Assembly: GCA_038087875.1 (NCBI GenBank)
Contig: CM075989.1
Span: 14,138,001-14,198,000, forward strand
Source: Malacoraja senta
Taxonomy: Eukaryota
DNA length: 60,000 nucleotides
Direction: 5' to 3'
The first letter of the stretch is position 1. Each line of letters starts with the position of its first letter. Positions 6,945 to 59,415 of this stretch are shown here, piece after piece. The notes under the pieces were generated by a model. That model saw only the letters and a program-made list of their open reading frames with translations, did no database searches and was not told the DNA's origin. A program made the position numbers and the translations under genes.

Positions 6945-7530
6945 GAAGTGTAGGAAAGAACTGCAGGTGCTGGTTTCAATCAAGATGCTGGAGTAACTCA
7001 GCGGGTCAGGCAGCATCTCTGGAGAGAAGGAATGGATGAAGTTTCGGGTCGAGACCCTTCTTCAGACTGAAGTCAGTGGAGTGGGCAGGACAGAGATAGA
7101 ATGTAGTTGGAGACAGCAAGACTGATGGGATCGCGAGGAAGGAGGAGGGGATGGAGACAGGGAAAGCAAGGGCTATTTTAAATTAGAGAAGTCAATGTTC
7201 ATAGCGCTGGGGTGCAAGCTACCCAAGCAAAATATGAGGTGCTGTTCCTCCAATTTGCGCTGGGCCTCACTCTGACGATGGAGGAGGCCCAGGGCCGAAA
7301 GGGCAGATTGGGAATGGGAGGGGGAGTTAAAGTGCTGAGCAACCAGGAGATCAGGTAGGTTGAGGTGGACTGAGCGGAGGTGTTCAGCGAAATGATTGCC
7401 GAGCCTGCACTTGGTCTCACCGATGTACAGAGGTAGACACCTGGAACAGTAGATGAGGAGGTGCAAGTGAACCTCTGTCGCACCTGAAAAGACTGTCGGG
7501 GTCCTTGGATGGAGTCAAGGGGAGAGGTAA
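6945..7530 (-). mobile_element. Penelope-like element 3' part: GIY-YIG endonuclease plus terminal repeat
   Basis: ORF 7173-7466 IYCSRCLPLYIGETKCRLGNHFAEHLRSV...VAQHFNSPSH...RKLEEQHLIFCLGSLHPSAMN is a PLE GIY-YIG domain; followed by the repeat carrying the hammerhead motif. Confidence 0.92.
7038..7065 (-). ncRNA. Minimal hammerhead ribozyme motif (PLE-associated)
   Basis: Minus strand CTGAAGA-A-GGGTC TC GACCC-GAAA-C-TTC. Confidence 0.65.
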
Positions 7531-7922
7531 TTTAGCATGTTCACTCAAGATATGTGTGATATACTATTTGTGCCACATAAAATTGTCATTAAATTTTAAT
7601 CATCCTAGTGATTTATTTTACAAAAAGATATCTTCTTTCTTAATCATGTTTCACATTGGAGGCAACCCGATTCTATGAATACATTTTTCCAAGCAACGAT
7701 AGAATAAATTGTCTTCTTGTTTGGGTATAATGTTTTGAATGAGTTTTAAATTTGAAGTGAGCCAATTAAAACAATTTTTTATCTTTAAAATGTCTCTATG
7801 TAAGTTAAAATTAAATTGTTTAACAAATGGCAATTCTTTGCCAAACATGTTTGTGCTATAATCTGGTGTGTCAGTACAATTTAACAATGCACTTTGTTGA
7901 GTGATGCAGAATTATGAATATA

Positions 7923-8570
7923 CTAGACTAAGTGGGACCCGTTGGGTCCCTATCACACGGGAGGCCTGGTCCCCCAACGCACCTGTTCCCCAACGCAATA
8001 TTCCACCACTCACACCTATCCCCCTCCCATCAAATCCACCCCTCCCTGTCCCCCTCTCCCTCTGCCCCCCCCCATCCCACCTTGCCCATCACCCCGGGCC
8101 CCTTCCATCCCCCTGCAGTCCACCACCCCTCTACCCCATCCTCCCTCTCTTTCCCCCCTCCCTCCCTCCCTCTCTTTCCCCCCTCCCTCCCTCCCTCTCT
8201 CCCTCTCTTTCCCCCCTCCCTCCCTCCCTCTCTCTCTCTCCCCCTCCCTCACCCCTCTCTCCCCACTCCCTCCCTCATCCCTCTCTCCCCCCTCCCTCAT
8301 CCCTCTCCCCCCTTTCTCCGTCATCCCTCTCTCCCCCCCGCCATCCCTCATCCCTCCCTTCCTCATCCCTCTCTCCTCCCTCCCTCCTCCCTCCCTCCTT
8401 CTTCTCTCCCCCCACCCCCCCCCCCCCGTGCTGTGGGCCGGGCTGCAGCGCTCCCTCTCTCCGTGTAATGGTGTGGTGCGTTAGGACTATTCCGGGTGTC
8501 CGTGCCCACGGGCAGGAGCAGCTGGAGCGCTGCCCGTCCTGGGACCCGCTGTGTCCCTCGCCAGCGGGTT
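7923..8570 (-). mobile_element. Non-autonomous Helitron; 3' end clear, 5' end not located
   Basis: Minus strand hairpin GGGACCC-AAC-GGGTCCC (7934-7950), 7 nt, then CTAG|T; shares CCCCAACGCAATATTCCACCACTC with the element at 43285-44711; internal C/T-rich tract. Confidence 0.75.
8010..8430. repeat. Polypyrimidine (CCCT/CT) low-complexity tract inside the Helitron
   Basis: Almost only C and T. Confidence 0.95.
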
Positions 8571-8814
8571 AAATAACAAAGCACAAAATAATTAATATTG
8601 TTTAAGAAGCAATCAAATGGAAGATCCTATTTGGGGATAGAGAAACAATGAAATGTGTTGAAATTCTTGTTGTGCGATATAATTTCAGTCACATTGTTGG
8701 CTGTGATCCAGGAACAGGTCACCTCACTGCCCATCAGCATGACTTAATGTATCAATTAGGAAGGAGTAAGGTGGGAGGACTATACCGATGCTGCACCTTT
8801 TTGCTGAGTCTTGG

Positions 8815-9190
8815 AGTCATGAAACAGGCTATTCGGCCCAACTTGTCCACACCGACCAACATCTCCCATCTACACTAGTCACACCTGCCTGTGTTTGGCC
8901 CTTATCTCTTTAAATTGATCCTATCCATGTACCTGTCTAAATGTTTCTTAAATGTTGCGATAGTACCTGCCTCAACTACCTCTTCCAGTAGCTTGTTCCG
9001 TACACCCACCACCGTTTGTGTAAAATAGTTAACTCTCTGGTTTCTATTAAATCATTCCCCCCTCACCTTAAACCTATGTCCTCTGGTTTCCGATTCCCCT
9101 ACTCTGGGCTAGAGACTGTGCGTTTTCCTCTTGTGATTTTGTATACCTCTATAAGATCACCCCTCATCCTCCTGCGCTCCAAGGAATAGA
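8815..9190 (-). mobile_element. CR1 LINE 3' fragment
   Basis: Reverse complement of the CR1 end at 2404-2860 (GTATACCTCTATAAGATCACCCCTCATCCTCCTGCGCTCCAAGG encodes LERRRMRGDLIEVY). Confidence 0.85.
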
Positions 9191-9621
9191 GTGGGCCCCG
9201 CTTCTGTGCTTCCTTTCTCTCACTGGGGCCCCTCTCCCTTTCCATTCACTGGGGCACACACTCCCTTCCCTCTCACCCCAGCTCCTCTCCCTCTCTCCCT
9301 TTCCATTGAATGGGCCCCGCTCCCACACTACCTTTCCTCTCACTGGACACTTATCCCTTCGCTCTCACTGCAGGTTCCTCTCCTCACTGGGGCCCTGGCT
9401 CCTGCACTCTCTTCTCACTCGATCTCCAGCTCCCACCGCACTCACTGGGACCCTGGTTCTTTTGCTCCCTATCAAACTTACCTAGTTTATTGGAATACTG
9501 TAATTACGATCATACTGAGCAAGGTTTAAAAGTATAAATTAGAAGTGTATTGGCTTATTAATGAAAATAATACCCAATAGTTTGGAAAATCTGCCAGATT
9601 GCCACCACCAAAGTCTTGAGT

Positions 9622-9649
9622 CTGAAGAAGGGTCTCGACCCGAAACGTC
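9622..9649 (+). ncRNA. Minimal hammerhead ribozyme motif (best-preserved copy)
   Basis: CTGAAGA-A-GGGTC TC GACCC-GAAA-C-GTC; helix III reduced to palindromic ACGT; GTC cleavage triplet. Confidence 0.7.
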
Positions 9650-9799
9650 GCCTATTTCCTTCGCTCCATAGATGCTGCCTCACCCGCTGAGTTTCTCCAG
9701 TATTTTTGTCTACCTTGTATCTCTATTTGTTGTCACCTTCTTATAGTTAACAATGGTCTATTCTACAATTTCCTTGATCTCCATCTCTTTTGATCTCTT

Positions 9800-11162
9800 T
9801 TTTTAAATTTATTTTTTAAATTTAATTTATTAGAAGTACATTAAATTACAAACAATTACATTAGTGCACATCACGTATATCTTATTACAATTAATGTACT
9901 CCTTCATTTTTTAAAGCTAATAAAAAGAAAAGGTTGAAATTAAGAAGAAAGAGAAAGTGAAAGAAAATAGTGTGAAAGCGTGTCAAAAGGAAAGAATAAA
10001 GACCCTGTAGAAAAGAAATTAGAGAAAAGAGATTAAGAGATAGACCCTAGGAAAGAAAAAAGAGAAAGAAGAAAAAAGAGAAAAACAGATACTCTATTAT
10101 GAGCATCACACAAAAGGGATATACCAACTCGCCACCTTTCATCCCCCTTTACTAAGTCCTGACATCGGTACCTTTTTAAAGTACTGTTGCACCTTATGCT
10201 TGTAGTAGTTCTATAAATGAAGACCACGTTCTATAGAAGTGATCTGATTTGCCTGCCAGGAGGAGTCTTATCTCTTCCAGGTGTAATGTTTCAAACATAT
10301 TTGAAATCCACATGTATATAGTTGGTATTGGAGCATTTTTCCAGAATTTTAGGATAAGCTTTTTTCCAGTTATTAACCCGTAATCAAATAGGTTCTTTTG
10401 AAACACATTTAGTTCAGGGCTACCTTCTGTTGTTCCAAAGATAATCCATTATGCTTTTGGTATGTTTTATTTTAAATAATTTTGTAAAGATTTCAAATAT
10501 ATCAATCCAAAATTTTTGAATTTTTGTACAAAAAACAAATGAGTGCGCTATAGTAGCTTCTTGAGACTGACATTTATCACAGATAGGTGACACGTTGGGA
10601 AAAATGTTACTAATTTTGGTTTTTGAGTAATATAATCTGTGTAAAATTTTGAATTGTATTAAAGTGTGTCTTACATCGAGCATTTGTGCACATTTAATAA
10701 ATGTTCATTCCAACTCTCCTTTGAAAATTTAATAGCTAATTCTTGTTCCCAGTCTCTTCTAATACCTTCCGTAGCTGGTATTTCTACATTTAAAATAATA
10801 TTATACAAATAAGACATTAAATTTGCTGATTCGGCTTTTATCTGCATTGCTTCGTCCAGTAAATCTAGTGGCATATTATAATAATCTTTTGTATATTTTT
10901 TCAGATAATCACATATTTGGAAATATTTAAAGTATTGATTGTTTCCCAGATTATATTTTAGTTGTAATTGTTGGAATGATAGTAATTTTCCAGTTTCATA
11001 CAAGTCTCCGAGCATTTTAATTCCTAATCTTTCCCATTGTATAAATGATTTGTCTATAATGGAGGGTTTAAACGAAGGGTTATTAACTATTGGGGATAAA
11101 AGCGATAGATTTCTTAATTTTTAATTATGTTTTATTTGTTTCCAAGTTCTAATTGTACTATG
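9800..11162 (-). mobile_element. 5'-truncated L1-clade LINE (ORF2 C-terminus with CCHC zinc finger, 3' UTR, A-rich tail)
   Basis: Peptides LIQFKILHRLYYSKTKISNIFPNVSPICDKCQSQEATIAHSFVFC, LLSFQQLQLKYNL and KKLILKFWK; perfect 15-bp TSD CTCTTTTGATCTCTT at 9785-9799 and 11163-11177. Confidence 0.92.
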
Positions 11163-11689
11163 CTCTTTTGATCTCTTACACTTCCTTATTTCTGTAACTC
11201 CCTTTCCCCTGATGCTCAGTCTGAAGAAGGGTCTTGACCCAAAACGTCACCCATTTCTTCTATCCAGTGATGCTGGCTGTCCCGCTGAGTTAATCCAGCA
11301 TTTTGTGGCTATCAATGATGTTATTGGGTTTGTTTCCCAGAATCATGTAATTCAGAACATTTGGTTGAGGAGTGCATTTAACAGTAAAATATTGACTCTC
11401 AGTAGTGATTAAATTGGTTTCCTTACACATTTTCACATCCCACCTTGATACTACTTTTCCTGGGTATCTTTGAGCATTAGGATTACAAGATTGATGAGGA
11501 GAGCCTGTAACTGATGACACTGTCAAAGATAATTATCTGCACACTTATGAAACAGTTGGGGCACGACCGAGATCAAAAATTATCGAAATCTCTCTACTGG
11601 AAACATCTGCACACTTTTATGTGTTGACATTCTTCTTTTGCTGCTAATTAGCCATGAAGTACCATATATTTAAGATTATGTATTATTTT

Positions 11690-12170
11690 TTAAATGTTTC
11701 CCAGTTGCAGTCTGTTTCTGTGTAGATAGTATTCTGCCTTTGGATTTCTCTTCCCAGAAGTGAACGGCCTCACACTTCACTAAATTAAATTTTATGTGTC
11801 AACTTTTCACCTATGCAATCTATCTGTATCCTGTCTAATATCCTTGTCATAACTTGCCCTTTCACCTATTTTTGTGCTATCAGTAAACTGGGATACCTTG
11901 CATTCCACATTATCCACCAGGGCATTGATATAAATAGTACATATCTGAGGATCAAGGACTGATCCCTGGATTACTCCATGAGTTTCTCCTTCCATTTTGC
12001 AAAAGGTCCATTTATTCCATAGTTTTCCACCTGATAACAAGTTTTCAATCCTTGCACATCCTCCAATACCATGAGCTCTTCTGTACCAGACGTTTATGTG
12101 GCAATGTGAAATGTCTTCAAGAAGACAAAACACACCAGGTCAAGAGGTTCCCTCCTATTGACTGCATTAT
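11690..12170 (-). mobile_element. Degraded CR1 reverse-transcriptase fragment
   Basis: GVIQGSVLDPQICTIYINAL...VSQFTDSTKIG resembles GVPQGSVLGP...IYINDL...SKFADDTK. Confidence 0.8.
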
Positions 12171-13115
12171 TACAGACTCCTGCACTTGAGCAAAACTCAT
12201 CAATTCTGTTACTTTTGTTACAAACTTCTACCATGCCCTCAAATTCTCTTGGACATTTCTGACACCTCTCTCTCTTTTCTGGATTTCTCTCTCTGTCACA
12301 GGAGTTAAACTATACACTGACATTTACAACAAACTCACCTACTCCCACAACTACCTTGATGATACCTCTTCCCAATCTGTCTCTTTGAAGGACTCCATCC
12401 TTTTTCCTTATTTTTTTATTTCTCCGTCTCATCTGTTCTCAACATGTTCCAAAAGATTTGAAATGTACTCCTTCAACCACAGTAGAGGGTTCCCCTCCAC
12501 TGCGGTTGATGGAATACTCACCAGCATCTCCTCCATTTTACGGACTTCCGCGTTCGCCCAATCTCCACCCATACAGCTGAAAGATAAAGTTCCCTTGGAC
12601 CTCACTTTTCACCCCACCGGCCTCCACATCCAGCACATCATCCTTTGTAATTTCTGTCAGTTGCAATGGAATCCCACCCCCAGTCACATATTCACTTCCC
12701 CTTTCCTGCTTTCCACATCCCCCTTCCCAACTAAGTTGGTGTGGTTTTTGTTTACCCCTTGCACTTTCCCTGCAACTGTGGGAGATGCCACACATGTAAA
12801 TATACCCTCTCCCTCACCAACATCCAGCGACCTAAACAGCCCTTTCAAGTCAAACAAAGATTCAAAAGCACCACCTGCACTACTTGTGACCATTTTGAGG
12901 AAGAACTTTGCTCTGTTTACAGTGACTATCATGACTTCACGGTTGCATGCAATTTCAGCTCTCCTTCCCATTTCCATACTGCAATGTCAGTCTTCAACCT
13001 CCCCTACTGACAGGGTGGGGCCAAAAGCAAACTCGAAGAACAGTACCTCGTATTCTGCCTGGGTCGTCTACAACCCAATGGTATGAACATTGAATTTCCA
13101 ATTTCAGGTAACCCA
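12170..13115 (+). mobile_element. Degraded Penelope-like element (RT C-terminus, linker, GIY-YIG)
   Basis: Peptides RGFPSTAVD, KVPLDLTFHPTGLHIQHIILCNF.QLQ and FPCNCGRCHTC...IQRPKQPFQVKQRF; 3' end similar to 7173-7466. Confidence 0.85.
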
Positions 13116-13394: not shown

Positions 13395-14197
13395 TGAAAT
13401 TCAGTATGGCAAAGTGCGGCATCATGCATTGTGGTAAAGGCGTAGATTATTTTCTAAATGGAGAGAGAATCCAGAAATCGGAGGTGCAAAAGGACTTGGG
13501 AGTGCTGGTGCAGGACTTCCAAAAAAATAATTTGCAAGTCAAATCAGTAGTAAAGTAGGCAAATCCAATGCTAGCATTTATATCAAGAGGACTGGAATAC
13601 AAAAACAGAGAAGTAATGCTGAGGCTCTATAAGGCGCTGGTCAGGCCGCATTTGGTGTACCGTGTGCAAATTTGGGCCCCATATCTGAGGAAGGATGTAC
13701 TGGCTTTGGAGAGGGTCCAGAGGAGTTTTACGAGAATGATTCCAGGAATGAGTGGGTTAGCATACGATGAGTGTTTGACAGCACTGGTCCTCTACTCGCT
13801 GGAGTTTAGAAGGTTGAGAGGGGACCTAATTGAAACATACAGAATAATGAAAGGCATAGATAGCGTGGATGTGGAAAGGATGTTTCAACTAGTGGGAGAG
13901 TCTAGAACCAGAGGTCATAGCCTCAGAATTAAATAGCGCTCTTTTAAAAAGGTGGTGAGGAGGAACTTTAGTCAGAGGACAGTTAATCTGTGGAACTCAT
14001 TGCCACAGAGGGCTGTGGAGGCCAAGTTAGTGGATATTTTTAAGGCAGAGATAGACAAGTTATTGATTAGAACGGGTGTTAAGGGTTATGGGGAGAAGGC
14101 AGGAAAATGGGATTAGGTGGCGGAGATCAGCCATGATTGAATGACGCAGTAGACTTGATGGGCCAAATGGCTTATTTCTACTCCTATAACTTGTGAA
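13395..14197 (+). mobile_element. CR1 LINE 3' portion
   Basis: ORF 13568-13936 MLAFISRGLEYKNREVMLRLYKALVRPHL...LERVQRSFTRMIPG...RRLRGDLIETYRIMKG. Confidence 0.92.
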
Positions 14198-16588: not shown

Positions 16589-17681
16589 CCATAGAGAGTG
16601 GTGAATGCTTTGTTAATCATAGCCTTTCAGGAGGAATGTGCAGCCTGCGCCAGCAAACGTTTACATTTAAATTGCTGTTATCATTCTACAAATGTATGCA
16701 AGCACATTTAGACAGACCTCCATACCGGGCAAGAGAATTATAGTTTAGTGGGGAATGCTGATATTGCATTTGATGTAAGAACAATAAGCTGTAATATAAA
16801 TACCATATTTCACTCAACAGATTTGAATACCTAATGTAATAATGATATAAACTAAAGGTCACCAAGAAGACCTAGAAGCTGGCACAAATCTATTTCCAGT
16901 GAATATCTAAAGATATTGGATGGTATCTAGGTCTGCAGCTGTTAACAGTTGCAATAAAAAAGTAAAGAATCTTACCTGGCAGATCATTACCTTGCTGGAA
17001 TGTTGCCATTTAACACAGAAAGATCTCCTTATTGGCAATGGACAGAGGTAAACAAATGGGTACAGTTGCTGATGTTCTAGATAGTCAGTGCAAAGTCAGG
17101 TATGTCTACCAATAACAATGTCTGGGCAGCTTGATAAGATTTTGAAAATGATGGTCATTTTTTGGAAAGAAAAGCACAAAAATTGCACTGAGATTTTGAT
17201 GACAAGAAAGGTATTGGTCCTGAGCATTCCCATTCTCATTGCTTGGACAAAGATCTCTCTGCTTGTCAGTGATCCTGGGATTTACTTCATATAATCCACC
17301 CACTGAAAGTGTTTTGTAATAGTTGGCAATGAATAGTCCAAAAATGTAAGTACGTCAGAATAACACATTGCGTTTGAAAAGCTACTGCAAGATTATAATT
17401 AAAATATTACAAAAAAGCTGGGAAAACCAATTCTTTATTAAACTTCCTTTAAAGATAAAGCTCTTAGTCAGTCATATTAACTTTCCAGACATCTAGCTGA
17501 AACTGCAGGAGTAACTTCAAAGCACAAGCACTATGCAAAATAGACTGCTTTATCTATCTGAGAAAAGAGGTTTACTTGTCCTTTCTCAAACCTGTAACCA
17601 CACATGGGACATAATCAAAGTGAGGGATGATCTAATGCCTAACTGTTTGATTATGGAAATGATGGGGAAAATATTCAGTTA

Positions 17682-18179
17682 AGGGCCTGTCCCACGGGCA
17701 TGCGACTCGATGCGGCAAGCGCGACCTAACCGCAAGCGGGGGCAGTGCGGGGGCCGCGCGGAGGTCGCGGGGCCGGTCCCACTTCGATCGCCGGAGCCGT
17801 ATGGAGTTGTGCGGAGCTGGTCCCGACATCGTGCGGGGCTCCGAAAAACTGACACTGTTCAAAAATTCCGTGCGGCAACCGCCTGCCACCCCACAGCCGC
17901 ATCGAGGCCATGCGTGCCGCATCGACGGCTGTGCGCACCGCCTCGACGATGGACGCAGCCGCCTCAGCGGCCGTGCGCACGCCCTCGCCGCCGTACGCAC
18001 CGTCTTGACGTCACTCGACCTCCGCGCGGCACCCGCTTCCGATTTGGTAGCGCTTGCCGCATGCAGCCGCATGCTGGTGGAACCGGCCCTGTACGGGGAT
18101 CACTCGACCTCCTCTCGGCCCCCGCTTGCGGTTAGGTCGCGCTTGCCGCATGGAGTCGCATGCCCGTGGGACAGGCCCT
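17682..18179. mobile_element. PIF/Harbinger-type GC-rich MITE, 498 bp
   Basis: About 60-bp near-perfect TIRs beginning AGGGCCTGTCCCACGGGCATGCGACTC; TTA on both flanks (17679-17681, 18180-18182). Confidence 0.9.
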
Positions 18180-19389
18180 TTAGTAACTGTAATGACTAAT
18201 GAGGATAGATCTAGAAATACAGTCACTTTTGGCTTTTCCCTCCAAAGTTAGGCGATTGGAAATTGACTTCAGCTGAAAGTTCAATCTAATAATGAATATT
18301 GCTGGGTGGTTCAATATATTTCTGGAAACTTAACTAGGCACTTCCCAAAGTATTTTATCCTTTCATGCCTGATACAACTTCCTGCCAGGTGTGGCTGGGT
18401 TGACACTGCTGTGTACGGATGTTGCGGGGAAAGGCAATCAGGTTTTCTTTGTTGGTCAGTCCTATCAACCCAAGAATCAAACTAATGGGCCTTTGTTATG
18501 CAGAACTGTGCCCAGTTTTCCTAGCGCTATCACACCAAAATCTACATAATTACAGTAAGATTTATTTCATGCTTCAAAACCCTTGTAATGAAACCATAGA
18601 TACCATTTACCTTGCTAATTGCTTGTTCTATCTGCATATTAACTTGCTGTGATTTATGTACATCTAAATTCTTTCTGATTAGCAGCATTTACCACCCTGT
18701 CACCGCTTAACATTAAGGTTGCTTTTCAATTCTTCCTATCAAATTTCACACTGCCCCTCATCTCCCACCTTCTTTTGCAATTATCTAACCTGGCCGTTCT
18801 TTTCATAGGATCTGTGTGCCCCATATTCCTTTCCTATAAATTCTGCATAAGAAGATATGGAAATACTGCAGATTTCCTCACCAAATCATTGTTACAGATT
18901 GTAAACAGTTTAAGCCCAAATTGTCGCAGTACCCTATGCCTCTTTACCTGTTAACCAAAACTCACTTCACGTTGATGTACATAATTCCTTAATTGCTGAA
19001 TTCCTAATTTTTGCAATAACCTTTTGTACTGGACCTACATGGAAAACGTTTTGAAAATTTAAAATATACTACATTTACTGGTCACTACTTAACTGTCTGG
19101 TTACTTGCACTTTCTTAAATAAAAATAGATTGGCAAGCTTGGTTTTCCTTGCATTTCTCTAGTTCTTGTGTCCTTTTTGAATCCATTCTTTCATTTGCTA
19201 CCTTTTCATTTGTTGCAACAGTTCTTGAAACCAGCAAATTATATTTCTGTTCCCCCTCTTTTAAAACTAGCATTTAGGCTATCCGGTCTTTTGGGAGCTT
19301 TTAGTCTAATTAATATTTCCTACATAAAGTTGTCATCAAGTGCTTCAAGAGACTTGTCATGTCATACATTAACTTCAACCTACCAGAAA

Positions 19390-19895: not shown

Positions 19896-20660
19896 AAGTT
19901 CTTAAGTCATTTGGCCCACTGAGTCTACTTCACCATTCAATCATGGCTGATCGATATTTCCCTCTCAATCCTATTCCCCTGCCTTTCCCCCATAACTCTT
20001 GACACCCTTACCAATCAAGTATCTGTTAATCTCCACCTTAAAAATACACAATGATTTGGCCTCAACAGCCGTCTGTGGCAATGAATCCAACAGATTCACC
20101 ACCTTCCAACTGACGAAATTCCTCCTCATCTCCTTGCTAAAGATTTGTCCTTTTATTCTGAGGCTATGCCTTCTGGTAGTAGTCTCTCCCACTAGTGGAA
20201 ACATCCTCTCCACATCCATTCTAGTCAGGCCTTTCATTATTCGGGTAAGTTTCAATGAGGTCCCCCCTCATCCTTTTAAATTCCAGCAAGTACAGGCCCA
20301 GTGCCGTCAAACACTTATCATACCCAATCATCCCTTGGATCATTCTTATCATCACCTCAGCATCACTGGAGCCTCTCAAATGCCAGCACATCCTTCCTCA
20401 CATTCGTGGCCCGAAATTGCTCACAATATTCCAAATGCGGACCGACCAGTGTCTTATAAACCCTCAGCATTACATCCCTTTCTTGATTTTCTAGTCCTCT
20501 TGGAATAAATGCTAACATTACATTTGCTTTCCTTGCTACTGATTCAACTTGCAAATTAACCTTTTGGGAATCCTACACCAGCACTTCCAAGTCCCTTTGT
20601 ACCTCTGATTTCGGAAACTTCTCCCAATTTACAAAATAATATATGCCTTTATTCCTACTA
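19896..20660 (-). mobile_element. CR1 LINE 3' portion
   Basis: ORFs 20363-20554 (KANVMLAFIPRGLE...LRVYKTLVGPHLEYCEQF) and 19971-20255. Confidence 0.9.
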
Positions 20661-21689
20661 TTTTCACTGTATCTCGATAAATGTGACAAAAATAAACAGA
20701 TTCCAATGGAATCTCTTCGTTTCGGGTCGAAACGCCACCCATTCCTTCTCTCCAGAGCTGCTGCGTCCCACTGAGCATTTTGTGTCTACCTTTGATTTAA
20801 ACCAATAGTATTATGGTCACTGGTCCTAAAATGCTCCCCAACTAAGACCTCAGTATTTTGTTATTTCCTTATTTCCCCACAATATTTTCTCCGGACTTTA
20901 CCAGTTTTCTTTGCAGGTTTGTGGTTTACACTCACCTCAAATAAAATATGGAATGTGACAGTTATTCAAAAGATCAGGCAGCATTTATGAATGAAATTTT
21001 CAATGATTACTTGATCATTTTTTACTTGTTTTTAAAATCCTCCCTATGGTCCATTTTGCAGGCTTTTAATGAAATACTTTGCTTAATTTCTCTGTCAAAA
21101 CATTTTTTACAGTGTAGTTTTTATTTATTGTATCGATTAATTAATTTTCTCATCTAACTTAGCCACTAAACAAGATCTTAACTACTTGCAAATAAAACTT
21201 GTGCATTTGTCTATGTGTGATTTATTCTCTGGAAGTGATACCATTCCTGGCTGGTTGAAAATAAATATTTTGCAGAATTAATGATGCAAATATACATTTT
21301 TATTTCATCCATTGATCCTTGCAAACTAATGCTTAATTTTTTTTATTGGCAAAATGCAAGCTTTTGTTAAAAAAAATTTCAGGCCAAGATTTAAATTCAA
21401 TAATGCCTAAAACTATTCCTCTTTTGTTTTCTTCATTAAAAAAGTTGTAGATTGAAGTAGATGCGTTCTGTTGTCTTGATATGTACAAGAACACCTTTTT
21501 TTCCCAATATTTACCAAAGTTTCTGCATTCAGGAACTGTTCCAGTGGATTGGAAGGTTGAAAATGCAACCACACAATTTATGGAGTGGAATAATAGAGGG
21601 GAAATATAAACGAGGAGTAAACAAGTAATGGAGAAAATGCACAGCAAACATGGTGCAATACATCAGATGCAAGAATAATGAAGGAATTA

Positions 21690-30762: not shown

Positions 30763-31583
30763 AGGGCCTGTTCCACGGGCAGGCGATTCCATGCGGCAAG
30801 CGCGACCTAACAGGAAGCGGGGGCCGCGTGGGGACTGCACGGAGGTCGCGGGGTAGGTCCCACGTAGATTGCCGGAGCCGTATGGAGTTGGTCCCGACAC
30901 CGCGCGGGGCTCCGAAAAACCGACACTGTTCAAAAATTCCGCGCGGCAACGGCCTGCCGTCCCGCTGCTGCATCGAGGCTGTGTGCACCGCCTCGACGCC
31001 GCGTGCACCGTCTCCGTCAACTCTGGAATTGTTGTGAAGGAAGGAACTGCAGATGCCCATTTACACTGAAGATGGACACACCAAAAATGCTGGAGTAACT
31101 CAGTAGATCAGGCAGCTTCTGTGGACAGGTGGTGTTTCGGGTCGAGACACCTTTTTCGGGCTGAAGTCTTCTGCAGTCTTCTATGGTCTGAGGAAGGGTC
31201 TCGACCCGAAACATCACCTACCCGTGTTCACCTACATAAAAACAGAAACATCACCTACCCGTGTTCACCTACATAAAAACCGCTTGACCTTCCAATGGAC
31301 TTCGCTCGAACTGGATGTCCGCGCATCCCCAGCATCCGGTAACGTCGCGCTCGCCGCATGGAATCGCATGCCCGTGGGACAGGCCGTACGGTGATCACTC
31401 GGCCTCCGCGCAGCCCCCGCTTCCGGTTAGGTTGCGCTTGCCGCATGGAATCGCATGCCCGTGGGACAGGCCGTACGGTGATCACTCGGCCCTCGCGCAG
31501 CTACCGCGCGGCCCCCGCACGGCCCCCGCTTCCGGTTAGGTCACGCTTGCCGCATGGAATCGCCTGCCCGTGGGACAGGCCCT
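30763..31583. mobile_element. Second copy of the PIF/Harbinger MITE, with a nested Penelope repeat and triplicated right end
   Basis: Same TIR as 17682-18179; CCCGTGGGACAGGCC ends at 31385, 31472 and about 31582; TSD not cleanly preserved. Confidence 0.85.
31035..31260. mobile_element. Inverted pair of Penelope terminal repeats with hammerhead motif (31188-31215, +)
   Basis: GGAACTGCAGATGC...TGCTGGAGTAACTCAG...GTTTCGGGTCGAGAC, then GGT-CTGAGGA-AGGGTCTCGACCC-GAAA-C-ATC-ACC. Confidence 0.8.
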
Positions 31584-31660
31584 TACCGCCTAGAACACAA
31601 CAAAGAATTTGGACTCAAATGTGGCATTGTTACTGGCACATTGCTCATGTTATGTTCTCT

Positions 31661-31696
31661 CCAAAGATACTAGAGGAGCTCCACTAGTATCTTTGG
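31661..31696. mobile_element. 36-bp palindromic micro-insertion with 6-bp TSD
   Basis: CCAAAGATACTAG-A-GGAGCTCC-A-CTAGTATCTTTGG flanked by TTCTCT (31655-31660, 31697-31702). Confidence 0.75.
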
Positions 31697-36139: not shown

Positions 36140-36800
36140 TTCTTCGGCCTAACTCATTGTGCGGGAGGCCACAGACGGAAAGGCCAGAGTGGAGTGAGAC
36201 AGAATAACTAGAAGTTCAGGGATGTTCCTGCAAACTCATTGCAGGTGCTCCTCAAAGCATTCACCCATTTATGTTTGATTTTTACATGGCTGAGGAGACT
36301 ACTTCGTGAACACCGAATGCAGTCCACTAGATGGGAAGAGATACAAGTGAATCACTGCTTCATCTGGAAAGACTGGGTCCCTGTCTTGTGGGGAAGGAGG
36401 AGGTGAAAGAATGTGTTTTTCATTCTGTGGTTGTATGGGAAAGTGCTGTAAAATGGGGATGGGTGGTGAGGTTGGTAGAGTAGAGTGCAGAACTATGATG
36501 GGAATAGACCAACTAAATACTTTGTGCACTCCTTTTGTAGCTGGTGGAAAATGTGAAGGATGATCTGTTGAATGTAAAGGTTGGTTGAGTGGAAGGTGAG
36601 GACCAGAGCAGAAGGGGTGAGAGCAGAGGTGTGGGAAACAGGTAAGAAAGGGCTCTGTCCCTAATGGTACAACAGAATCCATAGTTCGCAAGGAAGGAAA
36701 ATTACCTTGAAGTATCTCAGGAGAAAATCGTATCACTAGAGAAAATGCAATAGAAGCAGAGAAACTAGGAGAATGAAAGTCCATACATAAGGCAGGGTGG
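36140..36800 (-). mobile_element. Highly degraded Penelope-like element
   Basis: Similar to 7300-7530 (GAATGCAGTCCACTAGATGGGAAGAGATACAAGTGAATCACTGCTTCATCTGGAAAGACTG). Confidence 0.65.
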
Positions 36801-42710: not shown

Positions 42711-43284
42711 AAAACACACTGCTGTAAGAATTCAGCAGGTCAAGCAGCATCTGTGAAGTTAACAATGATGGTGCTCGATCTGCTGAATTCTTCCAGCAGT
42801 GTTTTTTTTGCTCCCGAGTTCAGCATTACAGTCTCTCATATCTCTATGAGTAGGAATGGAGTAAGGTTGATTACGAGGAATGCAGAGAAAGGTGGAAGAT
42901 CGTAGTGATAAAGAACCACAAGAGACACTGAATGTCTGCATGGATGGATAAGTTTAAAGAAGACGGAGGAAGCTACCAGCTTGTATCCTAGCACAACAAC
43001 TGGGAATATAAATTCAAGTGATTAATAAATATAGAACAATAAGCTAGTCTCAGTAACGATGACTGAAGCCACTTGATTGTGGTAAAAACCCATTTGATTC
43101 CGCAATGTTCTAATGGATATGAAATTTGCCATTCTTACCTGGCCTGATTCCACACCATGAAAAATGCTGTCTCTTGTCTACCTTCTGAAATGGACTCTGA
43201 AGCTAGTCACTCAAGGGTAGTTAGGGAGGGACAATAAATGTCAGCAGTCAATGCCTGACATTATTCTTCAATTACTAGATTTTA

Positions 43285-46145: not shown

Positions 46146-46184
46146 GTTAACAATAGTTAACAATGTTAACAATAGTTAACAATG
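46146..46184. repeat. Short tandem repeat of GTTAACAAT(A)
   Basis: Four units immediately beside the 5' end of the element. Confidence 0.85.
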
Positions 46185-49535: not shown

Positions 49536-50024
49536 TCTTCTTCTTCTGTCGTGTGTCTTTTAGACCTGCAGCTCCGTTGAGGCGAGCCAGGCCAACGTGT
49601 CATCCTCCAGGTCAATCAGACCTCATTCACCATTCGGTGGCCGGTGTTTGGGGCAACTGGTGACTATGTGCTCCACTGTCTGTGTTGGGTCCCCACACTC
49701 GCATGAGGCGCTGTCCACGAGGCCCCACCTCTTCATCGCTACTCCATAGTGTCCGATGCCTGTCCTGAAGCGGTTGAGGGTTGTCCACTGCTTTCGGGGC
49801 AGGTCCTGGCCAGGGACGTCCATGGGGTCACCGATGTAATGATGTAGCCTAGATGGTTCCGCTGACTTCCACTGGTCTCTCCTTCTCGTCTTGATCCAGG
49901 CAGCCTTAGAAGCGTCAGCCGGTGTTGTGCAGAGCAGCTCTTGGGCTTGCGTGGCAAAGGGGTGCCGTGACTTGAGACGCACTCGTCGTGGTGTCTCTGT
50001 GACGATCTGATGGAGGAGGTGGGA
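49536..50024 (-). mobile_element. 5'-truncated Vingi/Ingi-clade LINE (C-terminal CCHC region, short 3' UTR, (AGA)n tail)
   Basis: RLKSRHPF...WTTLNRFRTGIGHYGVAMKRWGLVDSASCECGDPTQTVEHIVTSCP, one internal TGA, then GLIDLEDDTLAWLASTELQV*; tail GACACACGACAGAAGAAGAAGA. Confidence 0.8.
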
Positions 50025-51079
50025 AGTGAAGTGAAGTGTTTGTAAAGAATGTGTTTCAGGATAATGTGGAATAAGCTTTGATTTTGAAGATCAGATGCAG
50101 TGAGGAAATCAACGTGCACTGTTTCTTATTTGGTACTGAAAAACAGCAAGGGAGGAAAGGCCAAAAGATTATGGACCATGAATACTTTAACCAAGACTTT
50201 ACATGTGCCTCTACCTTCCTGGGCATGAAAAATAGAATTGGAGAAACTCCTAACTGGTTATTTTGATCATCAAACCATCCAGAGGTACTGTCCCTTTGCC
50301 TCCACCTCTCTCGCTGCTCCGCCTACTGGCTATCTCCTCTTTACACTCTCAGTCTTGAGGCAAAGTTTTGACCTGAAGCATTGACTGCCCGTTTGCCTTC
50401 ACTATCCTGCCTGGACCTGCTGTGTTCCTACAGCTACATGTTTTTTGCTTCATATCTCGGCACCCGCAGTCTCTTGTATCTCTATTTTCATCCAGAGATA
50501 CAGCCTGTCTAGGGTGAGAACCATCTTCAAAATGTACTGCAGAAACTTACCAAGCCTTTTGCAACAATGCTACCCAAACCTCCCACATCATGATGTTCAT
50601 GGGAAGAAAAGGCTAATGTATCCTGATTTACAAGTAAATTGCTATTTGAATAGATCCATTTACTGGAATCATCTGTTCAACAGCATTGTGGCACTATTTT
50701 TGCCTTAAAAAAGGGGAGATTCAGGGAGGTTTCTACCCAGCATCCTCTCAAGGGCAATTAGAAATGGGCAGTAAAATAATTGCTCTGCCTGAAACACCTC
50801 AGTTATGGAAATGGCTTGATAGGCATAAATGACAAAGGTTAAAGATGAAAAGGATACAAAGGGATGTCAGATTAGGAGAGAAGAGGAGTGAAATGTAAAG
50901 CCAGAGGGAAGATATGAGTGGAAGGGGATGGAGGGTAGAGGAAAGAAGGTGGATAAAAATGAAATGTGGATTTGGGGATGGGAGATTTGGGGAAGGAGGG
51001 TAAAGGAGAAGGGTGACTGGGGGCATGGGAAATGGTAAAAAATATGTGTGCACTGGGGTGGGAGAGGTGGCAGGCTGGG

Positions 51080-53329: not shown

Positions 53330-53620
53330 TGAAATGTTTCCAATGCTGAAATATATGCAAAATTAATTGCATTTGAGCATGGCCAGATTACACAGATTGC
53401 AATAAGATAAATAATCTTGTTGTTGGCCGTTGATGTTGGCTGAAGGATGATTGTTGGTCAAGGTGAGTCGCTTGTTCTTTGAAAAAAGCCTTGGTTTAAT
53501 TTGGTATCAAAAGACGGCGTCTCCTTTGCCGATTTCAACCCAGTTTCTGCAGCTCAGAAGAGGCTTTAACCAGCAACCTTCTGATTCAGATATGAGAATG
53601 TTGCGACTGATGCTATAGTA
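53330..53620 (-). mobile_element. Possible ancient Deu-domain SINE remnant
   Basis: GCCTTGGTTTAATTTGGTATCAAAAGACGGCGTCTCC and CAACCTTCTGATTCAGA resemble DeuSINE core and head sequence as I recall it; highly degraded. Confidence 0.4.
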
Positions 53621-56474
53621 GAATGGGAATTCCTTGCATGCAGGCTGTGATTTCTCATTTGGAGATTTCTAAATGTAGTGATGGCTTTCTTTATGTGGCT
53701 GATTGACAAAAAGGGAGGTGGGGTATATGAAAAGAATCCTCTGCAGGGTCTTCTGGGTCCCAATGGCATTTTTCAAACATATAATTACTCGTTTAGAATG
53801 GATACATTATAGTTGTTTTTGATTTATGGAATCAATTCAAAGGAAGCAATTTGAAATGATGTTCCCCACGTGTATCTGATGTCAAAAATTTAATAAAGCA
53901 AGTGAACTTCAAATTTCTTTATTGATTAACAACTTTCTGATATGGACAGAATGTGTTTCTCAATACAGCCACACAAAAAAACCTACTGTAGATCATAGAA
54001 TATTCCATTCCTCAAGAAGTCATGGGACAGTTGACATTGAGGTGAATGCTCTTATGACTGACATTTTCTCAAAATGGCATATTTTAAATTGCTGAGGTTA
54101 TATCATGACCCAAAGAGTTAAATCTGGAAATTAGGTTTGTAATTAAGAAGTTTTTGTCATCAACTGTTTTGCTTAAAATTGCTTGTTTTCTTGTCACAGC
54201 ATATTAAAAGTATACATGGTAAAACTTCCATTGTTAGAAGATGGATTTTACTGATATCTGCAAAGCAAAATTCTTGATGAATCTTTGGCCACATTCCGTG
54301 TTGAAACTTTATGGAGGTATACATTTCTTAAAGAAATAATGCATTGGATACTCATTTAAAAAAAACACTAATCTTTTTAACCTAATTAATATATAGTTAT
54401 GTTCAAATGATTATGTGTAAATGGCTATTTCATTGGTGTACATTTTAATTACTTCTTGTTGAATGGCTAATATCATTGGGGGAAAAAATGAAACTATAAT
54501 CTGCTGTCAATTGATAACTTTAAATGTTTGTCTTTGATGATTAATTAAGACAGATATACTGGGAATAGAGTAGTTTTCAATTTAAGTGTTCTGATATTAA
54601 AGTTTAAAAAAATTAAAAATTTAAATTATTCAAACATTCATCCAATCCCTAAACTAAATGATAATTATAAACATTTGCCTATTATGGAAAATGGTTATGT
54701 AGTTGTCACAATAGGTCACGTTGAGCTGATAAATGAAAGGTCAGGTACAGCACAACCCTGACAAACAGATTTCCTTACCGAGCCTGAGGAGAGCTTCACA
54801 CTGTTATCAGTATTGCAGCTAGCAATGCATCTGCTGTCGGCTGTGGGTCTCCTACAGCATTGCATGTGTAAAATCTGTGTGCGGGGTTTGTTTTTTCTTC
54901 TGTGGTGAGCTCATTTCACACCATCTCTAAGCAGGAAGACACGTTACTATAGGAGAGAAAGACTGCTGGTCGTACAATTCAGAATGTGGGCAGAAGAGTG
55001 CAAAGCAGTGGCACAAAGCAGGCTGCTATGTGAAGTTAAAGCTGATGCACGCGATGATAGGATTGTCAGTCCGTAGTGATTGTTGAAAGCTGTACCAATT
55101 CAATAGTTGTCAGGGGCACTGACTTAATCCCATGCTAAAGCTTCATCAAAGCAGCATGAAAGGAAGAGAAAAGGATTGTACTTCAGGTGATGCTTTGGAA
55201 CCGTATCAATGTAGCAAGTTGTAAAGAATGCAGTTAATGCTGCTTAGGGAAACCACTGGAATTTAGAGAAACAGATAACATTGCAGGGCACCAGTCTGCC
55301 TGATTGCACTTGAGTTGAAGCACTGTGGATCGGCTGTGCTGTCTCCTGTACCATTTCCCCTTTTGATTAAGCATGGGAGATCAAATGTGTGGTTTTTGCT
55401 CTGTGTTTCTGCACTGAAGGAAAATTCTCATGTGTCCCTTTGTTTGATGGGTAGTTTCTTTAATTGCAAATCTGGAAAAATACAGGTATGTTCTTGCCAA
55501 TTTATTATGTCTCTGAAATGTGTAAGATATTTAATCTTGTATTTATTTTTTATAATTCATCTTAAATGCTTTAATTAATTTCCCTGACACTCAAGTTAAT
55601 TCTATTATAGCTATAGCTATTGTTTTGTCTTTTTGTTCCGCTTAAATCAACTGTTATGCAGAAACCATGGATTAATAATGTAAGTAAATCCCATTTGATA
55701 CCTCAGTGCTGTAAATTCCATGTATATTACAGTTTCACTGCCTGGGGTTTAAGAATGTAGTTCAATGCGTAGCTGAAGAACCTATTATTTCTTTAGTGCA
55801 ACCATGTTGTTACATTTTTGCTGTGTAATACAGCAATTTTAAGTCATTTCACAAATAGGAATACAAATGTTTTACTCCATCTGTTTTGTTCATCCCCGTA
55901 TCCTGATTAATCTTTCAGCATGAACAGCTTGCAAAATTGCCACGCCACACAACCTGTTTAAAATGTATACATGTTATTTTTTTCAGTAGTGCTAGCAAGA
56001 TAGCCAGCAATTGTTCTCACAGTTACTACCTGTTCTTTCAAATTGGTTCTGAAGGCTTCTTGGTTTTATATCTGAAATAATTTTAATTATCATTAACTCT
56101 GTCATTCTCAAGCAATTCATTAAATGAGGTTTAACCAATGCAGTGTAAGCTTTACAGAGGAAATTGAATCATAACCCTTGTGACAACCTCAAATCTTTAA
56201 GCTAAATAATATATGCACTTCATATTTAAATATCCTGCTATGGAGTTTAGGAACTAAAACCAGAGTTTACATTTAGACTGTTAAATGTTGATTGCATGTG
56301 AAATAGTAAGATGATCTAACTTTTAACAAAATGATAAATCTATTACATTACATCATTTCACAGGCACTTTTATCTGGTGATCTCAGAGGCTTCCCTCACT
56401 TCAGAGACTTTCCATTGTTTAAAGAGACATTGTCAACTCAGTAAAGAAGTTTTCAGGCAGACCCATGCTACTGT

Positions 56475-56580
56475 CAGACACAGAAAGGTGGAGTAACTCA
56501 GTGGGTCAGGCAGCATCTCTGGAGAAATGGAGTAGGTGACGTTTCGGGTCCAGACCGTTCTTCAGACTCGAAATGTCGCC
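56475..56580 (-). mobile_element. Penelope terminal-repeat fragment with hammerhead motif (56538-56565)
   Basis: Minus strand AGT-CTGAAGA-ACGGTCTGGACCC-GAAA-C-GTC-ACC. Confidence 0.75.
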
Positions 56581-57441
56581 TTTATTGCTTCAATTGGGAT
56601 AATGGTCACATATGAAGAAAGCATGGCAAAATGGCTCTTACCCAACCCTTTTAATGGCATTTAGTATATCCCATATGAATAAGAGAGAACAGAGAAAAGA
56701 CACAAGATAGAAATCAATACATTGGAACACTTGAATTTCAGTGGACCTTGAGCTCCTAGCATTCGTGCTGTGAATTGCACTGGTCTACTGTGGGTACCTA
56801 AAACAAAAACAGAAAATTCTGGAAATACAGCAGGTCCAGCTGAATCTGTGGGAAGAGAAGAAAAGACAATGCTTCAGATCAGAGATCCTGAGTTGGGAAG
56901 GTGACAAAAGAAACTCGCTTAGCTGTAGCAAGGGTGAAGGAGGTGGATGTCTCTAAAAGCGTAATTATTTACAGTTGATCCCCATGTACACAACAGTTTT
57001 GCCACTCCAGAGACATTGCCCACTCTCTCGTCCTGTAGCCCAAATTGATTCTTTAGTCTCCAGTTCTGACACAGTCTCCGACCTGAAACTTTGACTGTGT
57101 TTCTCCTCCCACAGATACGGCCTGACCTGCTGAGTGTTTCCTGCATTTTCTATTTTTGTTTTTAATTTACAGCATCTCCAGTTTTTTTTTTTCTTCATAT
57201 ACTGTGTTAGCCTGTTGCTTTACATATGCTAAGACATCCTGCCATGATAATGTGCCTCATAAGAGACAGTTTTTTCAGCTATAATTTGATAAAGGCAATA
57301 ATAGGGTTGATGATTAAAGTAAGATTTGTTTTTATAAATTACGTTGCTTGCTAAAATTGTACAGAGCTGGCAACACATAACATGCACATTTTCAATGGCT
57401 AATGATAATTTAAAAATTAATAATAATGAAATAAAATAAAA

Positions 57442-57763
57442 GCGGCACATTGGTGTAGCAGTAGAGCTGCTGCCTCACAGCGCCAGAGACGCAGGTGTGT
57501 TCCTGACTACGGGTTCTTGCCTGTACGGAGTTTGTACTTTCTCACCATGACCTGCATGGGTTTTCTCCCCGAGATTGGTTTCCTCCCACACTCCAAAGAC
57601 GTACAGGTTTAGGTTAATTGGCTTGGTGTAATTGTAAGATTGTCCCTAGTGTGTGTAGGGTAGTGCTAATGTGTGGGGATCGCTGGTCGGTGCGGACTCG
57701 GTGCACCTAAGGGCCTGTTTCCGCGCTGTATCTCTAAACTAAACTAAACTATACTAAACTAAA
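57442..57763 (+). mobile_element. HE1-like tRNA-derived SINE, full length
   Basis: Head GCGGCACATTGGTGTAGCAGTAGAGCTGCTGCCTCACAGCGCCAG; CR1-like tail GGGCCTGTTTCCGCGCTGTATCTCT(AAACT)n. Confidence 0.88.
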
Positions 57764-59415
57764 TAATCAGTTTTTAACTATGCATGAGATTGAAAGTAAG
57801 AATCTTGTGCCATATCTTATAATCAGCACATGAAGATAAAAAAAGACTGTAGATGCGAGAAATCTGAAATAAAACGAAAAGTGCTGGAAGATCTCGGCAG
57901 ATTAGGATGTATCCTGAAAAGAGAAACAGTTATTGTTTCAGATCTGGGATCCTTCATCAGAATGCCATAGCGCTTATAACTCATATTTGTAATTATAAAG
58001 TTTAAATTTCCTTGGTGCCAGAAACGTTCATAGCTGGACCTTAAACAAGATTAAATGGAGGCAGGTAAATCAAATTGCAGCTTCATAACACAGAAGAAGT
58101 TTGTTTTTCATTTATATGCATTTATGTGTTTAACTCAATGATGGATTATGGCTTTCAACATCAGCAAAATCTTAGCACATACTAGTTTTGCAATAATATT
58201 ATTTATAAAGTAGTTTAAATTCATTATATACAAAACCTGTCACAGTTGGTACAGTTTAGTTAAATTGCAATGGAAGTTTTTTTTGTATGCAGCTTTTAAA
58301 GTGCATTAAAGCAATTTTTAAATGGAATTTACTTATCATAAAAGCAATTTAATCGAATTGGGACTTTTGTTCTAGGCTCCACAGGTATTTTTAAGAAAGG
58401 CTGCAATTATTTAAAAAGTGCACGATATAGACATTTTTATATAAAGACAGTTTTTTCTTTTGCAATTGTTTCCTGATTTTATTAAGAACAATGTGAACTG
58501 TCCAGTGTTTAAAGTTCTTTAAAAAAGTTTCAACTTTAATGGAATTACCTGATACCCAACCTTGAGTTATGTTCCTGGCTTTAGCCTTGGCCTGCCTCAT
58601 CAGTAAGACGCAGCACTATGCAGTAGAAGAATCTGTCGATACTGATTCTGTAGTAGAGATGCAGTCTTTAGCTTTGGCTGATCATACAGCAGAATAAACT
58701 GCCTTCAAAGAATTCTCCAATTTAGGTATAACTTGCTTCTCGCTGAAGAAATTAGCATTGTTTTGGAAGTTAGAAGAGGAGCGTTTTCCTTAAGGGTCTA
58801 ATATAAGCATTTAACGGCACATGACCAATTGAATATTAATATCACAATACCAATTGCAATCATGTTGCATTGCCCATTTTCAACATGTCGATTGCACCAG
58901 GATCAAACGATTGACACATTTCCTAAACATAAGCATCTGACATACATGTACCTGCACTCAATTGTCAATTGAATAGCTTACTGAAGTGCTACATTTATAC
59001 AATAAAATCAGCCTATTAGCCTCATTTCCCCCGAATACAATTGCAAATAATGTCATATTCAAACTTGCACTTTCACCGAAGGAAAATTATTTTTTTAATC
59101 TGTTTTCCAGTAGTTGCTGGTGTTATTATTCCCTGTTATTTCTACTAAAGTGCCTATGAACAGGTACTATCTGTAATGGTTCATGAAGAGGAGCTGAATT
59201 ATTTGCTAAAGTTGTGAATATTGAGCTTTTGGTTGTGAATTAACAATGGGTGGAGACTACTAGCTCTTCTGTCAAGGCTTTCTGAGGATTCACAATTAAT
59301 TGTCATCAGACACCATATCTACATTGAATATTTAACATAATTTGAACGGTTTTAGAAAGCTAGTGGTAATATTTTGTTAAATATATTGCCAAATTTGGCC
59401 AAATTCTAAATGTTA

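Follow-up and report, generated by a model that had tools for sequence, protein, structure and literature searches.

This locus raises the question of whether Penelope ribozymes cut in living cells and how the upstream terminal repeat (pLTR) of their host element is regenerated. The window, a stretch of 60,000 nucleotides from Malacoraja senta (contig CM075989.1, positions 14,138,001 to 14,198,000), carries dispersed minimal hammerhead motifs. The initial annotation placed six of them at 7038-7065(-), 9622-9649(+), 11221-11248(+), 31188-31215(+), 56538-56565(-) and 57932-57960(-), where all six strings are found; a profile search finds 13 related pieces rather than six. The window features are as follows.

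6948..7540, minus strand: 5'-truncated, frameshifted Penelope-like copy (tblastn 70-72% to the intact ORF)
7173-7540, minus: linker end and GIY-YIG endonuclease of this copy
about 7071-7172, minus: its pyrimidine-rich 3'UTR, followed by ribozyme and tail
7038..7065, minus: minimal hammerhead, triplet TTC, without the palindrome
9619..9717, plus: solo stub starting 3 nt before the core, short 3' end; holds ribozyme 9622-9649
11175..11313, plus: copy that includes about 46 nt of 3'UTR; its ribozyme, 11221-11248, has lost G12
12160..13097, plus: divergent Penelope-like RT/EN remnant, 39-44% identity
16133..16225, minus: decayed old-family copy
20720..20795, plus: partial copy with a fold-back inside stem II at its start
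31051..31229, no single strand: head-to-head pair of a decayed piece, 31051-31164(-), and a short one, 31186-31229(+), with ribozyme 31188-31215 (ATC)
36235..36642, minus: divergent Penelope-like ORF remnant, 35% identity
42712..42834, no single strand: inverted pair of pLTR tail pieces
56470..56581, minus: solo stub behind a short inverted remnant; ribozyme 56538-56565, G10.1 to C
57060..57200, plus: old-family copy, core decayed
57820..57964, minus: old-family copy; ribozyme 57932-57960, triplet AAT

The six motifs are real and each carries the extra A described after the CUGANGA box, but several conserved positions are lost in individual copies, and only 9622-9649 is letter-perfect. The motifs at 7038 and 31188 keep cleavable triplets and have lost the ACGT palindrome claimed as helix III. 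The change from GAAA to AAAA reported at 11221 is the loss of G12, a conserved position, by CpG decay. At 56538, the replacement of G10.1 by C, absent from the initial annotation, disrupts the conserved G10.1-C11.1 pair, and the motif at 57932 ends in a non-cleavable triplet that falls outside the C-NTC pattern ascribed to it. By a strict minimal-hammerhead descriptor, the CUGANGA, GAAA and NUH core boxes are intact in three of the six copies. This descriptor gives three matches in the window, where 50 dinucleotide shuffles yield zero or one apiece; evenly spaced genome totalling 800 kb has 47, with zero or one in five shuffles. Both counts exceed the shuffled background, and a chance origin of the motifs is thus rejected. 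An Rfam search returned no match to the hammerhead motifs; its sub-threshold Plastid-psbJ-4 match is the hairpin of the inverted tail pair at 42712..42834. Ten window copies examined for target duplications show none that is convincing, and none was found around the older solo stub at 9619..9717. Five of the six window motifs, like the majority of copies in the genome, are likely inert.

The assignment of these minimal type I motifs to Penelope pLTRs is upheld by the copy behind the GIY-YIG remnant and by intact elements of about 4 kb that carry the ribozyme in both pLTRs; tandems of about 4 kb also occur. The intact element has a single ORF of 1,200 aa with an RT, a Cys-rich linker between RT and EN (CxxxxCxxC at residue 1105) and GIY-YIG at its C terminus, and includes the motifs YIDD and YIGET. 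Pfam recovers RVT_1 (E 7e-6) and GIY-YIG (E 0.0015) in this ORF, both below the curated cut-offs, and nothing in nine window fragments; a solved-structure search with the RT-EN frame gave no match. The ATG lies about 163 nt downstream of the core start, and two 3' ends (tail sites) lie about 95 and 131 nt after it. Elements show pLTRs, partial tandems, inverted partners and an optional tail of 30-40 nt. In an unbiased sample, the endonuclease end is followed by the motif within 400 nt in 18 of 23 cases; the profile search of the window found no ribozyme piece behind the RT/EN remnant at 12160..13097. Judged by its features, the element is an EN+ Penelope-like element of Neptune/Nematis type, here called Neptune-like. 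The genome-wide count proposed in the initial annotation gave 18,728 and 19,101 copies of two exact 28-mers (about 38,000 together) and 0 for the reversed controls. Copies decay neutrally after insertion. The young family has about 19,000 exact copies of the ribozyme and many elements that are intact, which allows insertion ends to be read at single-base resolution.

Across subfamilies the core is more conserved than its flanks (11/11 versus 46/83 columns), so that the earlier reading withstands the conservation test set for it; none of the 11 core positions varies between the majority sequences of six subfamilies. An extra nucleotide between 9 and 10.1, together with the G10.1-C11.1 pair, is present in 46 of the 47 strict matches. 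Old-family rows have T at 11.1 in 97% of cases, and the extra A may pair with it. The palindromic 15.2-16.2 that replaces helix III is ACGT in five subfamily majorities and ACAT in the old family, which we read as CpG decay of ACGT. The youngest family has a GUU triplet. Helix I, which lies outside the initial annotation, has 5 bp in the old family (CAGTT/AACTG); every younger subfamily has 2 bp. The stem II of 57932 (GGATC/GATCT), previously taken as different but still paired and hence structurally conserved, is not supported as compensatory covariation and is no trait of its family: it occurs in 2 of 32 aligned family rows including the query, the majority being GGATC/GACCT, and no two-sided compensatory change was found among younger subfamilies. 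Predicted folding does not favour the active hammerhead form, with the active dimer 7-11 kcal/mol above the best predicted dimer. The 2 bp helix I of the successful young subfamilies and the burial of the core in the predicted lowest-energy folds speak against strong cleavage.

The first footprint consists of 5' ends just before the ribozyme. Among 97 consecutive young copies, 50 start 0-6 nt before the core; the next start is at 13, with none between. Older copies pile up alike, with 87 plain junctions and 50 inverted ones versus 47 that enter the UTR (n=186). Solo copies were inserted directly, and target duplications are frequent around them: such a duplication reaches a score of at least 10 for 22 of the 34 stubs that are not inverted. 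In four stubs the opening 9-11 nt of the core occur a second time, as if copying hit an end and then re-primed. As a cause of the pile-up, cleavage at the GTC immediately preceding the core is rejected, since many stubs reach -3 to -6. A cap-derived G before AGT is not claimed: among older copies it fits 8 of the 12 cases that are not C, but the young copies are mixed. We favour, with some confidence, the explanation that these are minimal hammerheads carried in a Neptune-like Penelope's terminal repeat and that the solos are directly inserted stubs, produced by RT run-off on uncut RNA that starts just before the ribozyme. Reverse transcription would begin inside the RNA, at the tail, as in the anole element, and the stub template would be a linear, uncleaved RNA with its 5' end at an initiator-like TCAGT.

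A copying stall or template switch at this point, with no RNA end, could also pile up 5' ends; the joins at +28 described below would then be microhomology accidents and the ribozyme would barely cut. The sequence TCAG-T-CTGA is palindromic, the CAG after a pyrimidine tract resembles a splice acceptor, the tract can pair with the core, and in predicted folds the UTR pairs over 9 bp with GAAGAAGGG. The palindrome predicts inversion, and 9 of 13 copies ending at -5 are inverted; non-inverted stubs, however, are most frequent at -2 and cut off sharply at -6. A stall fixed by sequence would be expected on the second pass too, yet only 1 of 22 upstream pLTRs starts at the 0-6 nt site against 50/97 of the young copies (p 2e-5). 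A barely cutting ribozyme is consistent with the weak helix I and with cleavage being unneeded in vitro in the anole system (PMC11167929); a core conserved across subfamilies speaks against it, and we regard this explanation as improbable. Less probable still is that the ribozyme lies in a spliced exon, with the CAG before the core as acceptor and a donor at the start codon, such that splicing unites ribozymes or repairs helix I, as was suggested for Drosophila Penelope. Of 44 copies with UTR, 41-42 keep the pyrimidine tract and CAG; a sequence resembling a donor, AAG-GTATG, is present at the ATG, and the D. virilis intron is described as terminating at helix I (PMC4209133). The predicted exon-exon junction nevertheless has 0 genomic copies, stubs have no upstream exon attached, and no GT-AG joint occurs among the joints listed from contigs of related organisms, which are only guessed to be RNA. 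Assembled contigs of this kind cannot show where an RNA ends, and as evidence on RNA ends they count neither for nor against. Splicing out of the ORF, from the ATG donor to the pre-core acceptor, was likewise rejected, with 0 genomic junctions and none among the joints listed.

The earlier interpretation had further proposed that solo copies spread SINE-like without the ORF; its Penelope setting stands and its covariation does not, while SINE-like spread finds weak support at best. Solos did insert without the ORF. Every variant and both 3' ends found in them, however, also occur in ORF-bearing copies, and it is therefore simpler to view them as short products made by the autonomous element. 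A SINE-like cycle, in which stubs are transcribed from their own TCAGT and recopied in trans by the Penelope protein so that solos beget solos, seems unlikely to us. It would account for a pile-up confined to the first pass, older families have more stubs, and at three positions in the tail older-type variants are commoner in solos than in long copies (p 0.009-0.03, uncorrected). Against it, about 97 young copies hold no solo-private variant and show only mild frequency shifts, and tail-bearing 3' ends are equally frequent in solos (16/52) and long copies (10/44, two rows being duplicated). The two tail sites mark the 3' ends, which are not poly(A), A-rich or simple-repeat ends. By eye, stem II resembles a Pol III B box; it lies within 20 nt of the 5' edge, with no space upstream for an A box. 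The pLTRs are described as able to act in trans (PMC3846280), but the anole enzyme requires an ORF leader downstream of the start site (PMC11167929), which solos lack.

The second footprint consists of joins at the predicted cut site. The assembly has 413 copies that contain the leader. Six of 17 independent leader-to-ribozyme joins fall at +27/+28 (null 8.5%, p about 0.002), two of the six in tandem arrays, and two further joins are ambiguous. Without the two arrays that prompted the test, the count is 4 of 15 (p 0.03), and a third search yielded 0 of 2. Inspected by eye, five of the six joins at +28 have at most 1 nt of microhomology, which argues against microhomology accidents; one array join sits next to a CCTA microhomology. 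No clear accumulation at +28 is seen among solo 5' ends, most +27/+28 calls being internal deletions. Four arrays elsewhere in the genome consist of tandem units of 254-384 nt with a ribozyme per unit, and two arrays, whose unit begins at the cut site, are for that reason without the core. Four of the six arrays can be traced to a 3' end, and three of these end at +130 to +136. Judged from sequence, the rare joins on the predicted cut site likely record occasional cutting in the living animal.

Under run-off copying of uncut RNA, long and tandem copies would need a template without an end at TCAGT, most simply an RNA that the ribozyme has cut in each pLTR and that has then been circularised, as proposed for Penelope-like elements (PMC4209133). 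Rare mis-joined products, the leader-to-+28 joins and short tandem arrays, would then reveal the cut site. Cleavage would likely be weak and would need a second ribozyme and the element's protein; hammerhead dimer cleavage is attributed to Lunse et al. in a review (PMC6765202). For the anole element, an internal reverse-transcription start and protein-assisted cleavage are shown, and the account in PMC11167929 gives no RNA-seq ends at the cut site and describes cleavage as dispensable in vitro. Run-off on uncut RNA with occasional cleavage and circularisation would fit both footprints. A second 5'-end cluster, at -312 to -320 and present in both passes, is unexplained by a pure circle. More tentatively, the genome may preserve the Penelope cycle itself, with one enzyme start site and two RNA pools, together with the birth of a retrozyme and a GUU hammerhead with a two-base-pair helix that cuts in vivo. 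Uncut linear RNA would give the 100-135 bp run-off stubs; cut and ligated circular RNA would give long copies, the upstream pLTR and tandems; and mis-joined small circles starting at the cut site, copied repeatedly, would give arrays. If this is true, retrozyme birth from an active vertebrate Penelope is visible here.

Animal non-LTR retrozymes, as presented in PMC7229834 and bioRxiv 10.64898/2026.07.22.740005, share with the four arrays short pLTR-derived units with one type I ribozyme each; unlike these tandem retrozymes, the window copies are dispersed and two arrays have no core. Neptune/Nematis-type EN+ elements, as described in PMC8557442 and PMC3846280, have the same order of RT, Cys-rich linker and GIY-YIG, and also partial tandems, an inverted 5'-truncated partner, a palindrome at the inverted junction and an optional tail of 30-40 nt; the fixed 5' pile-up at the ribozyme edge is seen here and does not appear in the available text of those sources. 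PAc, the Poseidon element of Anolis carolinensis (Frangieh et al. 2024, PMC11167929), likewise has two tail-defining internal start sites, a ribozyme near the ORF start and uncut RNA as its main template. Its ATG is placed within stem II, as opposed to about 163 nt after the core start, and genomic cut-site joins are seen here whereas no RNA-seq ends are described there for PAc.

The closest relatives are the minimal hammerheads of metazoan Penelope-like elements (Cervera and De la Pena 2014, PMC4209133), which from that account have the same type I core with G10.1-C11.1, extra nucleotide between 9 and 10.1 and palindromic 15.2-16.2, and are also found in both pLTRs and mostly as single motifs tied to truncated elements. 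Stem II is 4 bp here versus 7-8 there, helix I has the 2 bp of the D. virilis variant rather than the typical 4-5 bp, and the GUU triplet of the youngest family differs. We extrapolate about 114,000 strict motifs, compared with 4,000-9,000 in coelacanth and Xenopus under different descriptors. The text available for PMC4209133 holds no 5' end mapping or in vivo evidence. The motif itself is thus already known, its extra A and ACGT palindrome being hallmarks published in 2014, and the two footprints are less ordinary. If both hold, the 2014 circle model becomes directly testable and the solitary state of most Penelope hammerheads in animal genomes is explained.

The six strings that the initial annotation had read as minimal type I hammerheads in Penelope terminal repeats (pLTRs), named here by their start (7038, 9622, 11221, 31188, 56538 and 57932), are all found at the positions it gave. 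Three of them (7038, 9622 and 31188) pass a strict minimal-hammerhead descriptor, which matched 0-1 times per replicate when the window was shuffled 50 times. The sequence is letter-perfect in 9622 alone: G12 has been lost from 11221, the G10.1-C11.1 pair from 56538 and the ACGT palindrome from 7038 and 31188, while the terminal triplet of 57932 is AAT. The motif has no Rfam match. Searched with a profile made from 118 natural copies, the window shows 13 related pieces, and a sample of 80 10-kb stretches, evenly spaced over the larger chromosomes, shows 282; the reversed control gave no match. Extrapolated from these stretches, the genome would hold some 685,000 such pieces, and strict motifs would number about 114,000; two exact 28-mers have 18,728 and 19,101 genome copies. 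The window contains further repeats:

17632-18199, 30703-31687: GC-rich repeat of direct and inverted 87-bp units
5420-5690, about 15100, 38416-39000, 39764-40400, 45360-46146: another GC-rich dispersed family, with internal 83-84 bp tandem units
10671-11120, 13435-14114, 19967-20654, 24359-25314, 40645-41028, 49623-50090: LINE-like fragments

The GC-rich copy at 30703-31687 is split by a Penelope pair (31051-31229). The LINE-like fragments, which we take to resemble 3' ends of CR1/L2, L1/Tx1 and RTE-type LINEs, gave no Pfam match where searched. At 42725-42793, an inverted pair of pLTR tails explains an Rfam hit to a plastid 3'UTR family that falls below threshold.

A GIY-YIG frame ends ~105 nt before copy 7038, and a motif follows within 400 nt behind 18 of 23 endonuclease ends in an unbiased sample (edge-located ends left out). 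An N-terminal piece used as query led to a young family in which many copies are identical and open frames exceed 1,200 codons. Retrieved examples run pLTR, ORF, pyrimidine-rich UTR, pLTR, form ~4-kb units in tandem as well as inverted partners, and end at about +95 or +131 (the C of CTGA is 0, and cleavage is predicted between +27 and +28). The ORF matches RVT_1 and GIY-YIG weakly, under Pfam cut-offs, and has the CxxxxCxxC linker that marks Neptune and Nematis elements in the accessible part of PMC8557442. The young family (L191-L210, several contigs) comprises many near-identical intact copies, 4-kb tandems and an ORF of about 1,212-1,238 aa with a 78-bp repeat region that varies; it is probably recently or still mobile. 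Such a repeat would point to a cartilaginous fish as host. The Penelope family is also present in contigs of other organisms (runs X1-X24, four examined in alignment), where loose ends include its identical terminal boundaries.

The first footprint is a pile of 5' ends just before the core. On one contig (C1), the first 100 listed matches to an exact 28-mer of the young family were taken, a selection that excludes copies beginning within the 28-mer, and 97 of them were mapped. Of the 97, 50 start 0-6 nt ahead of the core; the next start is at 13, and the remainder scatter to beyond 1,400. Setting aside copies with an inverted or duplicated neighbour piece leaves 72 of these listed matches, 34 of which start at 0-6; a target duplication scoring at least 10 accompanies 22 of these 34 stubs (short copies without the ORF). 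Solos are therefore direct insertions rather than remnants left by deletion. Whichever 3' end they carry, stubs share one 5' stopping place, so position, not length, decides. An unbiased sample of 186 copies with the ribozyme start present divides into plain flank (87), inverted partner (50), continuation into the UTR (47) and tandem (2). Stalling at the TCAG-T-CTGA palindrome would account well for the inverted class, but it leaves unexplained that the pattern is confined to the first pass: only 1 of 22 upstream pLTRs starts at -6 to 0 (p 2e-5 vs young copies) in a hand-compiled list of pLTRs that include the core and run on into the leader. That list counts duplicated loci once and omits pLTRs starting downstream of the core, one internally deleted copy, the arrays and a tandem of three units. 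Solos may also have been re-mobilised, SINE-like; at three positions they tilt to older variants (uncorrected p 0.009-0.03), yet no variant is private to them and their 3' end ratio matches that of long copies, two rows being duplicated in these comparisons.

Another 5'-end cluster spans -312 to -320, with 4/97 first-pass ends (corrected p 0.006) and 4/22 second-pass ends, and possibly represents the main transcription start. It lies inside the endonuclease region (L255, L268, L327, L328, L198, L205, L206, L348). TC(A/G)GTC underlies both clusters and resembles an initiator consensus. Four stubs (L254, L271, L316, L321) have, at the 5' junction, a direct repeat of the opening 9-11 nt of the core, which suggests re-priming at a template end.

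The second footprint consists of leader-to-ribozyme joins at the predicted cut site. Three gapped searches yielded 17 independent joins, read by eye: six at +27/+28, two ambiguous (shared GTT), one at +29 and eight elsewhere. Cut-site joins thus exceed the 8.5% null (6/17, p 0.002), also without the two discovery arrays (4/15, p 0.03); the third search contributed 0/2. Solo 5' ends form no clear pile at +28 among profile-sampled and mapped copies. Tail-to-leader junctions number 413 and frequently lie within short arrays, of which six were retrieved for unit boundaries. One array has 11 units of 138 nt beginning at +28 and another has 4 units of 165 nt beginning at +27/28; in the other four, which look like nascent retrozymes, units begin at -35 to -129 and each keeps the ribozyme. 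The first array unit is permuted, and the last stops at +130 to +136 in three of four arrays traced to their end, as expected from repeated circle copying from the tail site. These arrays (L333-L338, on C1) have 138-384 nt units of ribozyme, tail and leader.

Both footprints could arise if uncut RNA beginning at TCAGT gave run-off stubs, while long copies would need a template in which the start site has the UTR upstream and the leader downstream. A cut and ligated unit circle would supply such a template with no visible seam, as would template jumps or transcripts of tandems; rare mis-joins would then expose the cut site. A splicing model failed a genomic test.

Six subfamilies were assembled by their tail sequence; in their majority sequences all 11 core positions are invariant, compared with 46 of the 83 remaining columns (p 0.003, the subfamilies being related and not independent), so that the core is more conserved than its flanks, in keeping with the initial annotation; the downstream hairpin is likewise invariant. 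Subfamilies differ at N7, loop II, position 17 (GTC or GTT) and two one-sided pairing-preserving changes (U-A to U-G), with no two-sided compensatory change among the younger ones. Within subfamilies, among copies preselected at <=4 substitutions, core and non-CpG stem decay alike (3-10% vs 6-9%) and CpG sites more quickly (18-43%). Judged from sequence, this combination indicates that selection worked on master elements, not individual copies. Helix I is full (5 bp) in the 57932 family and 2 bp in the younger subfamilies. The GGATC/GATCT stem of 57932, earlier taken as structural conservation, is present in just 2 of the 32 rows aligned for its family and gives no evidence of covariation. In predicted folds the core is mostly buried, and the predicted active dimer reaches -13 kcal/mol where other dimers lie at -20 to -25, tertiary contacts being outside the model. 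In the young family (L193), a pyrimidine tract at UTR -25 to -12 is predicted to pair over 9 bp with the core purine run, a possible off-switch in UTR-containing RNA.

Neither footprint is described in the literature searched, including the accessible parts of PMC2377424, PMC3846280, PMC6765202, PMC7229834, PMC3138052 and PMC8557442, a set that most subscription papers fall outside. This kind of ribozyme is already known, and the two footprints offer a useful, if unproven, mechanistic trace. The consulted portion of PMC4209133 lists the extra A and the palindrome as hallmarks, and describes most motifs as single and probably truncated elements. For the anole element, the available text of PMC11167929 reports internal starts at the tail, a required downstream leader and protein-assisted cleavage; by analogy, we infer that all three may apply here too.
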